DNA of 64,000 bases from Escherichia coli (GTDB lineage Bacteria > Pseudomonadota > Gammaproteobacteria > Enterobacterales > Enterobacteriaceae). Shown here piece after piece: positions 24,001 through 30,000 of this stretch; the first letter of the stretch is position 1, and the number at the start of each line of letters is the position of its first letter. The DNA lies in assembly GCF_030384885.1 (NCBI RefSeq), contig NZ_CP128613.1; one strand, given 5' to 3'. Made by a program: the position numbers.

Positions 24001-27000
24001 TGCTGGCAATCGTGGTGCTGGCGCAAATCAGCCGTTGGTACTCTGCACAGCACCGAATGAATAAGGGCAAACCCAAAGCAACGATTATCAATCCACTGCC
24101 GCGCAACAAAGTGGTACTGGCGGTCAGCATTCTGTTAATCCTGATTTTCTCGAAATATTTCTATATGGCGAGCATCAGTAGCTATTACACCTTTTATCTG
24201 ATGCAAAAATTCGGATTATCTATCCAGAATGCCCAGCTTCATCTGTTTGCATTCCTGTTTGCCGTTGCGGCAGGTACGGTGATTGGCGGGCCTGTGGGGG
24301 ATAAAATTGGGCGGAAATATGTGATTTGGGGCTCTATCCTCGGCGTTGCGCCGTTTACGCTGATTTTACCCTACGCCAGCCTGCACTGGACGGGGGTTTT
24401 AACGGTGATTATTGGATTTATCCTCGCTTCGGCATTCTCTGCCATTCTGGTCTACGCTCAGGAGCTGCTTCCGGGACGTATCGGTATGGTTTCTGGACTC
24501 TTTTTCGGTTTTGCTTTCGGCATGGGAGGTCTGGGAGCGGCAGTTCTGGGGCTTATCGCCGACCATACCAGCATCGAGTTAGTCTATAAAATCTGTGATT
24601 TCCTGCCACTATTGGGGATGTTGACCATATTCCTGCCTGATAACCGGCATAAAGACTGATTTCATTGCAGCCAAAGGCAAACTTTGGCTGCATCGTTTTA
24701 CAGTCGCCATAAGCCTTTCCTCTGTTAAACCGCCTTCTGTTTTCCGATCCGTGCTTTTTTTGCCGCTAATTCCATTTTTCTGCAAAATTCAACAATTATT
24801 CATAAACATCATCAATGAAATTGTCATAAACTATTACCTGTAATTTTGGTTTTCCCGGCCAAAAATGGACAATAACCACCAGGAAAAGGAGACGGAATGC
24901 ATCACGCCACCCCGCTTATCACCACCATTGTTGGCGGCCTTGTGCTCGCCTTTATCCTCGGCATGCTGGCCAATAAACTACGTATTTCTCCTCTGGTGGG
25001 ATATCTGTTAGCGGGTGTGCTGGCAGGACCATTCACTCCGGGCTTTGTTGCCGATACCAAGCTTGCGCCGGAACTGGCTGAACTGGGCGTTATTTTGCTG
25101 ATGTTTGGCGTCGGTTTGCACTTTTCGCTGAAGGATTTGATGGCGGTAAAGGCCATCGCCATTCCCGGCGCGATCGCCCAGATAGCCGTGGCGACGCTGC
25201 TGGGTATGGCGCTCTCCGCCGTGCTGGGCTGGTCGTTAATGACCGGTATCGTGTTCGGTTTATGTCTTTCCACCGCCAGTACCGTGGTGTTACTGCGCGC
25301 ACTTGAAGAACGGCAATTAATAGACAGCCAGCGTGGGCAAATCGCCATCGGTTGGTTGATTGTGGAAGACCTGGTCATGGTTCTGACGCTGGTGTTGCTG
25401 CCCGCAGTGGCAGGAATGATGGAACAGGGTGATGTGGGCTTTGCGACGCTGGCCGTTGATATGGGGATCACCATCGGCAAGGTGATCGCATTTATCGCCA
25501 TTATGATGCTGGTAGGTCGCCGTCTGGTGCCGTGGATTATGGCACGCAGCGCGGCAACCGGTTCCCGCGAGCTGTTTACCCTGTCGGTGCTGGCGCTGGC
25601 GTTAGGGATTGCCTTTGGTGCGGTGGAGCTGTTTGATGTCTCCTTTGCACTCGGTGCGTTCTTTGCCGGGATGGTACTGAACGAGTCTGAACTGAGTCAC
25701 CGTGCTGCCCACGATACGCTGCCATTACGCGACGCGTTTGCGGTGCTGTTTTTTGTCTCCGTCGGAATGCTGTTTGATCCGTTAATTCTGATTCAGCAAC
25801 CACTGGCGGTGCTAGCGACGCTGGCGATTATTCTGTTTGGTAAGTCATTAGCCGCGTTTTTCCTGGTGCGACTGTTTGGTCACTCTCAACGTACGGCATT
25901 AACTATCGCCGCCAGCCTGGCGCAAATTGGTGAGTTCGCTTTTATCCTGGCGGGGCTGGGGATGGCGCTGGATCTGTTGCCGCAGGCCGGACAAAACCTG
26001 GTGCTGGCAGGGGCAATCCTGTCGATTATGCTTAACCCGGTGCTGTTCGCGCTGCTGGAGAAATATCTGGCGAAGACCGAAACGCTGGAAGAGCAGACGC
26101 TGGAAGAAGCTATCGAAGAGGAGAAGCAGATTCCGGTGGATATCTGCAACCATGCGCTGCTGGTAGGTTATGGTCGTGTGGGCAGCCTGCTGGGGGAGAA
26201 ATTGCTCGCCTCTGATATTCCTTTAGTGGTGATTGAGACGTCACGTACTCGCGTCGATGAACTGCGCGAGCGCGGGGTCCGCGCAGTATTGGGCAATGCG
26301 GCGAACGAAGAAATTATGCAACTGGCGCATCTGGAATGTGCAAAATGGCTGATCCTGACGATTCCCAACGGTTATGAAGCAGGCGAGATTGTGGCGTCTG
26401 CCCGCGCGAAAAATCCGGATATTGAGATTATTGCCCGCGCCCATTATGACGATGAAGTGGCGTATATCACCGAACGTGGCGCGAATCAGGTGGTAATGGG
26501 CGAGCGTGAAATCGCCCGCACTATGCTGGAACTGCTGGAAACGCCACCGGCGGGTGAAGTGGTGACGGGGTAAGACATTGATTTCATTTCCGGATGATTA
26601 CCCGGCATTGGGGACAATCAATTCTGAGGCTTCGTCCCATGAAATGAATCCTTCTTCCCACCAGGTACGATCAAGCTGCCCTTGATCAGGCTGAATATTT
26701 GCAGCATCTTCATGAAAATAGCGGCAGGCTCGTTCCCGGGCCTGCTCCGCCAGTTTTGCCGTGGTATAAATGCCGAGGAAAGCATAATCATCGGCCTCAT
26801 CATCACGAATATGCCACAGGCTGTACACCATCGGCTCGACAAGATCGTCTACCTGTGTAACGGGAAAATCTCCCCAGAGATCCTGGTTTAGGATGTATTC
26901 AATAAACTGAAAATTTTCCGGGTAATCCACAAAACCAGGCTTATTTTCCACCTCCTTTTTGGCCTGCAAGGCCAGTTCATAACGGGTATAAATGCCGATA

Positions 27001-30000
27001 CCTTTCATTTCGCCAAAATGCGTATGTTGCAGATACCATACCGTTTGCATTCTATGCATCCATGTCAGAAGTAAAAAAGACGCCGGTATTGGCTGCCAGT
27101 GCCCGGCGTGTTTGTATTAGCAAGATATTTAGGAATGAATTTTCAGGATGGGTGATGAGCGTTTGCTCAATAAGCGCAGCCATGTGCTTAAGCTTACGTA
27201 TATCCGTGACATACTCATCTTCAAAGTCATTGATACAGATATGTAAAGTGCCGTTGAGCAAGGTAATGAACAGATCGCTTGGCTTGCAGCAATCATAATC
27301 AAGACGTTCCATTGCCTGTTGTGTGAGCGGCACAGAAATGTATTTCATCTTGCTGCTTCCCTGGATTGCCCTGGTTGGAAAAACCACTATGTTGGAAACA
27401 CCACCGGCGGTTGAAGTGGTAACGGGTCAAGACATTGACTCCATAGCCGGATGTGATGCTAACGCATCCGGCAAGGGCGTGCTATCTTCCGCTGGTCGGA
27501 TAAAGCGTTTACACCGCATCCGACAGTCATCAGTCCGATAACTTAACGATCCCAGTAAGACTCTTCCAGGCTGTCTTCACGCTCCGGTAAGCCGCGCGTT
27601 AAACGAGGTGAATGCTGGTTCAGTACCTGATAGCTCACACGGTTAGCATATTTACACACCTGCGCTAATGACGAATACGTTAACCAGGTGAATTTATGTT
27701 TGCTGGAGTTTGGTACGTTGCTACGGTGATAACTGTTAGCAGTAATGTCATGCAACAACGCTGCCAGTGCGCCATCCCCGGCACCGTTGGTGTTCATGAT
27801 CTTTTCCGGCCCACCCATATAAGGCGCAATGTGCGAATAGACACGCAACGGATTCTGACAATCCTTGTGGCGCATGGCGCGGCTAAACTCATACTGGTTA
27901 AATTCCGCTATAGCGCCCGGCAGCAGCGGATGCTGGGTTTTACGTTTCGCTTCGTCTTCAGTAAAGCCCGCCATATACAAGCCGATTGGCCCGGCGGTGC
28001 ACAGCACCAGATCAACCCAGTCCAGCGCCTTGTCAGATGCCAACAACGGATCGCTTTCTCCGGTCAACGCTTCGGCCTCATCTTCGTTCATCGCAAGGAT
28101 AGAGACGTGATCTTTGAGGAATTGCTGCCACCACTGCGGATTCTCGGCAATGACAAACTTGGTGCCCAGCGTCAGCACCACCGGTACGTTATATTTCTTC
28201 GCGTACTCAATGGCTTTCATGGTTGCTTCCGGCATGGGTTCACCCGGCTTACAACGCACCAGATAAGAAGTGAGAACCAGTGCCGAGGCTCCGGCAATCA
28301 CATCTTCCGGAATACTTTCAGCCCGCAGCTGGTTCATGTGGCCAGGGCTGATAGCAAAGGTACGTTCCCCGGACTCGCCAATCAGGGTAAAGCAGCGACC
28401 AATCGGGCCATCCACGCCTTGTAGATAGTTAAGATCGGTACGGCTGGAGGTGTTACACAGGTAACGATAGGCATAGCTGCCAATTTCAATATTGCTGCAC
28501 ATGACGCCCAGCAGCACCGAACGGTCGTCCGCGAGCACCGAGTAGTTATGCATGGTGTTACCAATGGTGCCACCCGCAAACTGATGGGTAATCAGGTTTT
28601 TCTGTTTCAGCTCCTGATAAAGTGCTTCGGCAACATCATCCTCAATCACCAGTGAATGCCCGGCGCTTAATCCATAACGCTCAATGAACTCATCATCCAC
28701 TTTCGCTTCAATATCGACCAGCGTTTGATCGATACCCACTACCCAGGCAGCGCTGGTTTCGTTTTCTGGCTGGAATTGCTGAAGCAGCGGATCGCGTGCG
28801 TTTACGGGAAAATAATGTTTGGATTTACGTTTGCCGGGAAATTTCATGGTTGTTTTTACGGGTGGTTAACTGAGCGGCGAATGTTAGCACATTCACACCT
28901 GAACGCGCGATACACACTCGGCTTTCAATATCGGACGGCGGGATCGCATTTTGCTGGTGGCGGTTTATTACAATGACGTAATTTGGAAGGAGTTTTTTAT
29001 GAAACCGGAAAACAAATTACCCGTTCTGGAGCTCATTTCTGCTGAAATGAAGGCAGTTGTGAATACTTTTCAGGCGGATTTGCCGCCCTGGCCCGCAACG
29101 GGAACGATTGCAGAGCAACGTCAGTATTACACGCTTGAGCGCCGATTCTGGAATGCTGGCGCTCCAGAAATGGCAACCAGCGCTTACATGGTTCCCACAC
29201 CTTGTGGTCAGGTCGAGACTCGCCTCTACTCACCCAAAAGTCACAGCCCGGCGACACTATTTTATCTGCATGGTGGTGGTTTTATTCTCGGCAATCTTGA
29301 TACCCACGATCGGATTATGCGACTGCTGGCAAGTTACACCCAATGTACAGTGATTGGTATTGCTTACACTCTTTCGCCGGAAGCACGTTTTCCGCAGGCA
29401 ATAGAGGAAATTGTGGCTGCCTGTTGCCACTTCCACCAGCAGGCAGAGGATTATCAAATCAATATGTCACGCATTGGTTTTGCCGGTGATTCTGCAGGCG
29501 CAATGCTGGCGCTCGCCAGTGCGTTGTGGTTGCGTGATAAACAGATAGATTGCGGTGAAGTTGCGGGCGTTTTGCTGTGGTATGGGCTTTACGGATTACG
29601 GGATTCCGTGACTCGTCGTCTGTTGGGCGGTGTTTGGGATGGCTTAACGCAACAGGATTTACAGATGTATGAAGAGGCGTATTTAAGCCACGACACAGAC
29701 CGCGAGTCGCCGTATTACTGCCTGTTTAATAATGATCTCACCCGCGAAGTACCGCCCTGCTTTATCGCTGGGGCAGAGTTCGACCCTCTGCTGGATGACA
29801 GCCGTCTGCTTTACCAGACGTTAGCGGCACATCAGCAGCCTTGTAAGTTCAAACTCTACCCAGGCACGCTGCACGCCTTTTTGCATTATTCACGGATGAT
29901 GAAAGCCGCCGACGAGGCTCTTCGCGACGGCGCTCAGTTCTTTACCGCTCAGCTTTAGCGATACGCGGCTACAAGATTAGCCATCATTTCGATATGTTCC

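Follow-up and report, generated by a model that had tools for sequence, protein, structure and literature searches.

A probable toxin-less immunity islet of two small genes between ybaL and gsk in Escherichia

The two small genes that lie between ybaL and gsk in this Escherichia coli strain, referred to here as A and B, are probably a toxin-less interbacterial immunity islet, a minimal and heterogeneous "polyimmunity" islet. We consider this the best reading because there is no toxin gene in the window (the whole 64-kb stretch of contig NZ_CP128613.1 that was analysed), across which a toxin-domain HMM gave zero matches. Each protein would bind and block a cognate toxin domain delivered by a competitor, and a cell making no such toxin would still be protected. 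The pair is old in Escherichia; most E. coli have lost it, apparently via recombination between REP-derived repeats, and this strain acquired it within an E. fergusonii-like recombination tract. The reading offers a testable function for proteins called "hypothetical protein" in E. coli, E. albertii, E. fergusonii, E. marmotae and E. ruysiae, and it would describe a tiny orphan-immunity islet held between housekeeping genes for the age of the genus and then moved across species by homologous recombination. The features of the locus are as follows.

24897..26573, plus strand: ybaL, intact, K+ efflux transporter family; repeat copy 1 takes in its last 41 nt
26533..26596, no strand: direct repeat copy 1, made up of the true ybaL 3' end and the following 23 nt; 64-nt reference copy
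26598..27050, minus strand: gene B, 150 aa (153 aa from an alternative start at 27059), acidic, two tandem DUF7336-type domains; predicted orphan immunity protein
26631..26831, minus strand: B domain 2, residues 74-140; custom domain HMM E=5e-18
26868..27050, minus strand: B domain 1, residues 1-61; custom domain HMM E=1e-20; AF2 beta-beta-alpha-beta unit
27052..27348, minus strand: gene A, 98 aa; derived allele of a 111-aa family that has CdiI-type putative immunity partners as members
27073..27078, no strand: homopolymer run A6 in gene A; A7 in strain 2017-02-2CC and E. fergusonii
27268..27269, no strand: point at which A lacks 51 bp (an in-frame deletion) when compared with E. albertii and E. 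marmotae
27390..27453, no strand: direct repeat copy 2, a decayed ybaL 3' end with the stop TAA changed to CAA; collinear with the spacer plus the true gsk end
27446..27472, no strand: short palindrome of REP-like type, GCCGGATGTGATGCTAACGCATCCGGC, which runs on from repeat copy 2; the same element follows ybaL in E. albertii
27495..27524, no strand: REP element; sub-threshold naRNA4 match (Rfam) at 27494-27531
27543..28847, minus strand: gsk, inosine/guanosine kinase; upstream of A and B and co-oriented with them

The two minus-strand ORFs that the first-pass annotation placed in the gap (27052-27348, 98 aa; 26598-27059, 153 aa) are there as described, and they are the only genes between ybaL and gsk, so that the immunity-type genes are uninterrupted by toxin genes. 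RefSeq calls both "hypothetical protein" and starts B at 27050, giving 150 aa. The strong acidity ascribed to B holds (pI 4.33, net charge about -17), and A is acidic too (pI 4.9). Searches of A and B against NCBIfam, PADLOC, PHROGs, Pfam and PDB sequences gave nothing significant, a word-indexed protein search recovered relatives of both from Escherichia only, and a profile search added little. The early suggestion of a toxin-antitoxin, immunity or phage-defence module has divided: only immunity gains evidence, from relatives of A and B located behind polymorphic-toxin C-termini, and PADLOC, PHROGs, NCBIfam and Pfam give nothing for the other two.

By homology and predicted fold, B is a tandem fusion of two DUF7336-type domains. 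A phmmer search with B among 1.84 billion representatives returned 77 matches, down to 6e-11, in which both halves of B match a unit of about 70 aa, and our own domain HMM matches B twice (E=1e-20 and 5e-18). Pfam DUF7336 (PF24024) is matched by 12 of 28 aligned members of the B family; B itself falls below the threshold of that model, aligning over residues 85-105 only, and in its second domain the PGF..P..F motif is degenerate and the W.EGF motif retained. The AF2 model of B (pLDDT 89.5) contains two beta-beta-alpha-beta units, and its best Foldseek matches in AFDB50 are DUF7336 proteins. A 14-nt exact DNA repeat occurs inside the gene, with copies 222 bp apart. A tblastn search of B against plasmids gave no match, and no paper in the literature searched mentions DUF7336.

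The genomic company of this family points to immunity. A toxin-motif HMM identified 10 ORFs in the loci retrieved; eight of the nine non-phage toxin ORFs have a DUF7336 ORF 0-200 nt downstream on the same strand, and Pseudomonas phage Phipami28 provides a ninth pair, so that the arrangement recurs in 9/10 toxin ORFs from unrelated loci, the exception being an Acaryochloris copy (L029) followed by an unrelated gene. When contexts of B homologues were picked blind, four of six had the toxin directly upstream. The toxin domain, unnamed and about 65 aa long, ends Rhs proteins, phage-encoded Rhs-family proteins, C-terminal fusions to phage portals and a small secreted plasmid protein; it follows the Rhs core (TIGR03696, E=6e-20) in loci L017 and L030, and it forms a two-gene plasmid module in L028. 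The DUF7336 relatives at toxin loci have single- and double-domain forms and are 25-40% identical to B. Some DUF7336 genes reside in housekeeping contexts, which counts against the immunity reading. The portal-fused copies of the toxin are arranged in cassette arrays, which may deserve a study of their own.

The family of A has a different partner. A tblastn search found matches on Moraxella bovis plasmids (E=2e-4; pairwise E=2e-13, 28-33% identity), and on NZ_CP087818.1 the ATG of the A-like gene overlaps the cdiA stop by 8 nt. In a second locus (L036) an A-like gene of 44% identity begins 1 nt after an ORF with a CdiA-type C-terminus, the last 106 aa of which are 56% identical to the M. bovis CdiA C-terminus (tblastn 8e-32). 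In L027 the A-like gene is an orphan behind a different cdiA-CT/cdiI pair, and in L037 it is followed by a SitI3-family immunity gene (NF040657, E=5e-15, above cutoff). These remote links amount to four loci at 28-44% identity. A locus search with the A alignment found one Escherichia species representative among genome contigs and nothing in viral contigs, and the metagenome scan yielded L036 and L037. The AF2 model of A was unusable (pLDDT 49 for the 111-aa form, with a 6-sequence alignment). Judged from these neighbourhoods, the A family belongs to the downstream (CdiI-position) partners of the toxin C-terminus of M. bovis CdiA, which differs from the partner of B. The Moraxella homologue directly follows cdiA, whereas the window gene has no cdiA nearby, and the homology between them stands at 28% and E=2e-13.

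Homologues of both proteins are therefore co-oriented immediately downstream of polymorphic-toxin C-terminal domain genes, B in 9/10 cases and A through the cdiA overlap, the 1-nt gap and the orphan array. Because neither putative toxin domain belongs to a family in Pfam, NCBIfam or PDB sequences, the toxicity of both is read from position only. We propose Pfam DUF7336 as an immunity family whose partner toxin motif is now identified, and for gut interbacterial competition two toxin/immunity pairs are named that can be cloned. A broader idea, to which we give little credence, is that DUF7336 and the A family are previously unrecognised immunity families for two unnamed toxin domains, and that the conserved, toxin-less B could guard against a phage- or capsid-delivered toxin as well as against contact-dependent attack by neighbours, if these toxins travel in virions.

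The A allele of the window is itself unusual. It lacks 17 residues kept in 5/5 other family members, and a 1-bp loss in an A run (A6 versus A7) turns its end from ...FFYF* into ...FFTSDMDA*. With 17 conserved residues and the terminal FFYF missing, the window A is probably impaired and may be inactive; B looks intact in this allele. In other alleles A terminates as ...FFYF, 11-14 nt ahead of B. The 8-bp A/B overlap reported earlier is present here, but it is allele-specific and was created by the homopolymer loss. Translational coupling of the overlapping pair was accordingly considered and rejected, since the overlap is a frameshift artefact of a 1-bp loss unique to the window allele and is no sign of coupling.

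Presence/absence polymorphism, anticipated at first pass, was borne out: 2/5,426 complete E. coli genomes have the pair, 10 more have B alone and the rest, K-12 included, have neither. The same locus carries the cassette in E. albertii, E. marmotae and E. fergusonii, and further members come from E. ruysiae and other Escherichia species. B has a between-species dN/dS of 0.13-0.21 and A one of 0.16-0.29, and by this measure both genes are under purifying selection. The tract between positions 18 and 31 kb of the window shares 97-99.7% identity with E. fergusonii, against just 94-96.5% with K-12. Judged by these identities, the cassette came into the strain by recombination, together with at least 13 kb of E. 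fergusonii-like DNA. We rejected a recent local insertion, as the whole tract and not the cassette alone is E. fergusonii-like.

These data bear on a rather unlikely alternative, namely that A and B are decaying relics of an ancient polymorphic-toxin locus or island, now inactive in the strain and present as part of the imported tract. Decay would fit the 51-bp deletion and frameshifted end of A, the premature stop that truncates B in one E. fergusonii genome (CP079884.1), the deletion of A in ten E. coli genomes and the absence of the pair from 5,414/5,426 complete genomes, and on the gene strand a promoter/terminator scan of 26400-27700 gave nothing of relevance, with no promoter-like site for the pair. 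However, both genes have been constrained over the long term, as the between-species dN/dS (0.13-0.29) shows; most lineages, this one included, have a full-length B; the 51-bp deletion is in-frame and leaves the ORF open, and the exact window alleles, found on about 600 contigs, persist in a successful lineage. An immunity islet under constraint, with a probably impaired A in this allele and presumed expression of the pair, is the reading we prefer.

The junctions record an older history. Repeat search confirmed the direct repeat (26533-26596 versus 27390-27453, 64 nt, 84% identical, 857 bp apart), and the 61-nt stretch first recognised within it is indeed 52/61 identical by count from the alignment, with TAA reading CAA in the distal copy; by manual reading, and allowing a 9-nt gap, the copy may be 14 nt longer (CACTATGYTGGAA). 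The distal copy is collinear with the intact empty-site unit of E. albertii (ybaL end, spacer, gsk end) and is therefore the displaced original ybaL terminus. To that extent the proposed insertion/deletion footprint stands, but it marks no recent insertion in the strain, as the cassette is genus-wide at the locus. The K-12 ybaL-gsk spacer, given earlier as about 36 bp, is actually 132 bp and contains REP sequence, and the K-12 empty site looks like a deletion between the REP-derived repeats that flank the cassette in E. albertii. In the window, Rfam gave only the sub-threshold REP-derived naRNA4 match.

It is improbable that the pair is a self-mobile or integrase-borne element inserted at the ybaL 3' end in this lineage, in which case the 64-nt repeat would be attL/attR. 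The pair is indeed flanked by direct repeats that include the 3' end of the target gene, the distal copy represents a displaced gene end that is still in register with the original spacer, and E. albertii presents a mirror image with a 24-nt copy of the gsk 3' end on the ybaL side. Yet no integrase, transposase or recombinase lies in or beside the 0.8-kb segment, between whose repeats there are only two small non-enzymatic ORFs; the cassette occurs without the ybaL copy in E. marmotae and E. coli A30; and the E. fergusonii-like neighbourhood takes in the entire stretch from 18 to 31 kb, beyond the cassette.

An anti-phage defence system of known or candidate type would account for a variable intergenic islet and for the B-partner toxin domain in phage genomes and portal fusions, but we regard it as very improbable, as PADLOC-DB has no family at E<=1 for either protein and both, lacking enzymatic domains, appear from fold and composition to be small binders. 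Least credible is a type II toxin-antitoxin or other addiction module with one toxic and one neutralising protein, for although two small adjacent co-oriented genes sit at a variable spot and a 7-kb Moraxella osloensis plasmid pairs a DUF7336 gene with a small toxin-like gene, both proteins are acidic and unlike any toxin or DNA-binding antitoxin family (no match in Pfam, NCBIfam or PADLOC), B stands alone in ten E. coli genomes, A relatives occur without B-like partners, and the relatives of A and those of B each have their own secreted or delivered toxin partners (Rhs, CdiA, a signal-peptide protein).

Orphan immunity genes and acquired interbacterial defence clusters are among the closest known systems to the immunity islet proposed here. 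At the level of the domain, B shares with Pfam DUF7336 (PF24024) a beta-beta-alpha-beta unit of about 60-70 aa (consensus vY.LwH...K.iGvYss.e.Ae.A...l...PGF.dyP.gF.I....ld...W.eGF.), but scores below threshold (E=0.43) and has lost PGF..P..F from its second domain. At the level of the locus, polyimmunity loci and proteins of polymorphic toxin systems place immunity-type genes in tandem, without an intervening toxin gene (Zhang et al. 2012, PMC3482391). The islet resembles them in its toxin-less A-B tandem, the two-domain tandem of B, its patchy and strain-variable occurrence and the Rhs and CDI toxins that its relatives partner; it differs in having only two genes, which lie between housekeeping genes and not by a secretion or toxin locus, and in being conserved at its locus genus-wide. 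The A and B families also fall outside the named Imm families, one being Pfam DUF7336 and the other having no Pfam entry. CdiA-CT/CdiI modules and orphan cdiA-CT/cdiI arrays (Poole et al. 2011, PMC3150448) are matched by the A-family gene that overlaps the stop of a full-length cdiA on M. bovis plasmids and, on a sister plasmid with a different cdiA CT, by the A-family gene displaced as an orphan behind a new cdiI; near the Escherichia A, in contrast, there is neither cdiA nor cdiB nor a VENN-bearing fragment, and the identity of A to the Moraxella protein is only 28-33%. As in Rhs/RhsI pairs, DUF7336 genes lie 0-30 nt after Rhs C-terminal toxin domains, past the PxxxxDPxGL core end, whereas B is not beside an rhs gene and, unusually for Rhs toxins, its partner domain also occurs on phage portal C-termini and in phage genomes.

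The interval between ybaL and gsk carries two minus-strand open reading frames, as the first-pass annotation had described, and its observation is confirmed here with small corrections. The layout of the locus is as follows.

24897-26573, plus strand: ybaL
26598-27050, or to 27059 from an alternative start, minus strand: gene B
27052-27348, minus strand: gene A
between A and gsk: spacer with REP elements
27543-28847, minus strand: gsk

A and B lie on the same strand as gsk, downstream of it and convergent with ybaL, and nothing else is encoded in the ybaL-gsk interval of the window. 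The direct repeat claimed to bracket the pair was recovered by a repeat search (26533-26596 versus 27390-27453, 64 nt, 84% identity), and alignment of the original 61-nt version reproduced its 52/61 identities and the CAA in place of TAA in the distal copy. The downstream protein, B, is as strongly acidic as proposed (computed pI 4.33, net charge about -17). The K-12 gap, first given as about 36 bp, is actually a REP-containing spacer of 132 bp. The 8-bp overlap of the two reading frames is present in the window allele, but it is unconserved and is the product of a lost homopolymer base.

Direct library scans of B gave a sole, non-significant match to DUF7336. An exhaustive phmmer search returned 77 proteins, in which a unit of ~70 aa, single or tandem, aligns to one or other of the two halves of B (residues ~1-65 or ~74-144), and Pfam DUF7336 is matched by 12 of the 28 aligned family members. 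An HMM built from the single-domain members matches B twice (1e-20 and 5e-18), and the internal duplication is still visible in the DNA at a spacing of 222 bp. The AlphaFold2 model is confident (pLDDT 89.5, pTM 0.81) and consists of two beta-beta-alpha-beta units, and Foldseek against AFDB50 returned DUF7336 and uncharacterised proteins, and also a 100%-identical protein of E. fergusonii ATCC 35469. DUF7336 had no mention in the literature searched.

Genomic context offers a candidate role for this domain. Among six relatives of B picked blind to the expected outcome, four have a directly upstream gene ending in a common sequence of ~65 aa, a putative toxin domain reading roughly G.EAAKDVPSW..G..P...G..FA.RL.D.KYG.GNY..GP.SE.N.I.KWGDR.F, and the two others stand alone amid housekeeping genes, like B. 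At one fetched locus (L017), the domain follows an Rhs core with a canonical DPxGL end (TIGR03696, E=6e-20), and at three more (L016, L019 and L024) it forms a fusion with the C-terminal segment of a phage portal protein, in arrays whose cassettes consist of portal fragments, toxins and small genes. Searching from the toxin side by tblastn located the domain in four more places. It terminates an Rhs protein encoded by the Methylorubrum extorquens AM1 megaplasmid, a giant Acaryochloris protein with Ig domains and the 'Rhs-family proteins' of two Pseudomonas phages, and it occurs in a signal-peptide protein of 108 aa encoded by a 7-kb plasmid of Moraxella osloensis. In Methylorubrum, Moraxella and phage Phipami28 the next gene codes for a DUF7336 protein with one domain, which is not so in Acaryochloris; overall, 9 of 10 putative toxin-domain ORFs are followed by a DUF7336 ORF within 0-200 nt. 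The domain itself has no match in Pfam, NCBIfam or PDB. Polymorphic toxin/immunity pairs are defined by such an arrangement, in which the toxin domain comes behind the Rhs core and a small gene adjoins it closely (PMC3150448, PMC3482391). Because the ~65-aa domain shows this arrangement, DUF7336 is read as its immunity family, and B as a 'polyimmunity' member with two domains. The portal-fusion arrays lie on metagenomic contigs (L016 1-2230, L024 2400-8650 and L019), with small immunity-like genes in between. On a genome contig (L018, 2703-8060), a run of small same-strand genes includes two toxin/DUF7336 pairs, two 109-aa paralogues, a weak Deam_C ORF and a weak Imm1 ORF, and looks like a mixed toxin/immunity island.

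Sequence searches with A found no relatives beyond Escherichia proteins. Against plasmids, tblastn matched an ORF of 98 aa that is present on 25 plasmids of Moraxella bovis (E=2e-4, and 2e-13 pairwise). A and this ORF have in common RL[DN]YDCC..GDL, the acidic motif [FY]E[DE]E and a terminal FFY[FM], and a metagenome scan added two full-length relatives of 44% and 38% identity. On M. bovis NZ_CP087818.1, the start codon of the A-like gene overlaps by 8 nt the stop of a CdiA, a ~3,300-aa 'hemagglutinin repeat-containing protein'. At locus L036, the A-like ATG lies 1 nt past the stop of a 359-405-aa ORF, whose last 106 residues are 56% identical to the C-terminus of that CdiA (tblastn 8e-32). 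Because one and the same toxin C-terminus is thus paired twice, independently, with an A-like gene, we regard A, from gene position, as a member of a putative CdiI-type immunity family. On the M. bovis plasmid NZ_CP087785.1, the C-terminus of cdiA is a different one with an overlapping 161-aa partner of its own, and the A-like gene is kept just behind this pair, ahead of VENN-type fragments, which is how displaced orphan modules usually look. At locus L037, the gene next after the A-like one matches the SitI3 immunity family (NCBIfam, E=5e-15, above cutoff).

The window copy of A is, from its alignment, a derived allele. The ancestral form has 111 aa; the homopolymer at 27073-27078 is A6 in the window allele and A7 elsewhere, and owing to this one-base loss the protein ends in ...FFTSDMDA instead of the family's ...FFYF and its reading frame enters B. 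The window protein is without 17 residues kept in all five other family members, has in addition lost the conserved C-terminal residues, and may be non-functional. A and B alleles exactly matching those of the window are recorded on about 600 contigs, which makes the frameshifted A a genuine allele of a frequently sampled lineage. Just upstream of A in E. albertii (locus L007, about 5987-6005) is a 19-nt palindrome, TGGTTCTGGCAATTAACCA in window orientation, which E. marmotae (L011) has with a few differences and which is missing from the allele of the window and E. fergusonii; a regulatory role is conceivable.

The anticipated presence/absence polymorphism proved real when the 796-bp insert was compared by blastn with 5,426 complete E. 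coli genomes. Only two carry the full cassette, 2013C-4282 (NZ_CP027579.1, window-identical) and 2017-02-2CC, and ten further genomes carry B alone at 90% identity. The same pair occupies the gsk-ybaL interval in E. albertii (five loci), in E. marmotae-type contigs and in E. fergusonii; further protein-cluster members are from E. ruysiae and from several unnamed species of Escherichia, and the annotation is 'hypothetical protein' in every case. Between-species dN/dS values (0.13-0.21 for B, 0.16-0.29 for A) indicate that the two genes have coded for protein under constraint. In synonymous divergence the cassette is out of step with its flanks, albeit over small site numbers: dS between the window and E. 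albertii is 0.24 for B versus 0.53 for ybaL and 0.65 for gsk, and between the window and E. coli A30 it is 0.40 for B versus 0.19 and 0.16 for the flanks. This mismatch, at few sites, suggests that cassette alleles were exchanged among Escherichia lineages.

The junctions preserve part of the history of the locus. The distal repeat is no stray duplication: with the sequence following it, it is collinear both with the ybaL side of E. albertii (true ybaL end, spacer and 24-nt gsk-end copy) and with the gsk-side spacers of E. marmotae and E. coli A30. It thus represents the ybaL end that an 'empty-site' unit originally had, now displaced and in decay. The mirror image is seen in E. albertii, with a complete spacer on the ybaL side that ends in a 24-nt copy of the gsk 3' end (88%), and its cassette is flanked by 26-nt REP-derived direct repeats (85%). 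The K-12 spacer equals the E. albertii left flank fused to the right flank at these repeats, and cassette deletion between them would leave such an empty site. Relative to E. albertii, the window is missing about 140 bp between two TGCCGGATG motifs beside ybaL, and A30 has lost A except for its last ~40 nt. A single inferred ancestral structure, ybaL-spacer-gsk'-B-A-ybaL'-spacer-gsk, where gsk' and ybaL' are copies of the 3' ends, would account for the complementary remnants and could have originated by tandem duplication or a Campbell-type single crossover. No genome carrying both remnants was found among the junctions compared, and two independent events are a possible source of them.

Arrival in this strain is a separate matter. 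From about 13400 to 31000 the window is 94-96.5% identical to K-12, and over about 18-31 kb it is 97-99.7% identical to E. fergusonii CP079884.1 where sequence of the latter is available; past about 31.7 kb (to 64 kb), K-12 identity is ~97-98% and E. fergusonii identity falls to 92-94%. The segment at about 13400-31000 looks like an inter-species recombination tract, and the islet would most simply have been imported by homologous recombination as part of an E. fergusonii-like tract that measures at least 13 kb, local insertion in this strain being less likely. A second islet (20260-21434, plus strand), encoding a DUF6896 protein (266 aa) and a 125-aa hypothetical protein, separates ybaK from ushA; E. 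fergusonii has this islet, K-12 lacks it, and it gave no NCBIfam match. At the right-hand boundary of the tract, a gene for a 190-aa hypothetical protein (31069-31641, minus strand), not in K-12, forms an insertion in the hemH-adk interval and directly adjoins a perfect REP (31642-31671). At 18487-18694, about 370 bp of K-12 comprising most of ybaQ (HigA-family antitoxin) is missing, with two REPs at 18488-18618; the higB-higA pair is intact there in E. fergusonii. Window 1-13100 has no counterpart within the K-12 stretch compared; it holds a TolC-family gene and a frameshifted gene (siiEA) for a giant BapA-related adhesin.

Among the functions first proposed for the pair, immunity is supported and the other two are not. 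A toxin-antitoxin pair is unsupported, A and B each being found without the other in other genomes, and PADLOC gives no support to either gene as a defence system. A and B are probably both of immunity type; that both are functional in this strain is held with lower confidence. A domain search found no copy of the B-partner toxin domain within the 64-kb window. Two by-products are worth testing, namely the proposed immunity function for DUF7336 and the unnamed CdiI-like family, and the toxin domain common to Rhs proteins, phages and portal fusions. The portal-toxin arrays resemble the orphan cassette arrays of Rhs/CDI loci, differing by their portal scaffold. The pair itself would belong among orphan immunity genes: adjacent, unrelated immunity-type genes without a toxin resemble what Zhang et al. 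termed a heterogeneous polyimmunity locus, and B corresponds to their polyimmunity protein (PMC3482391).
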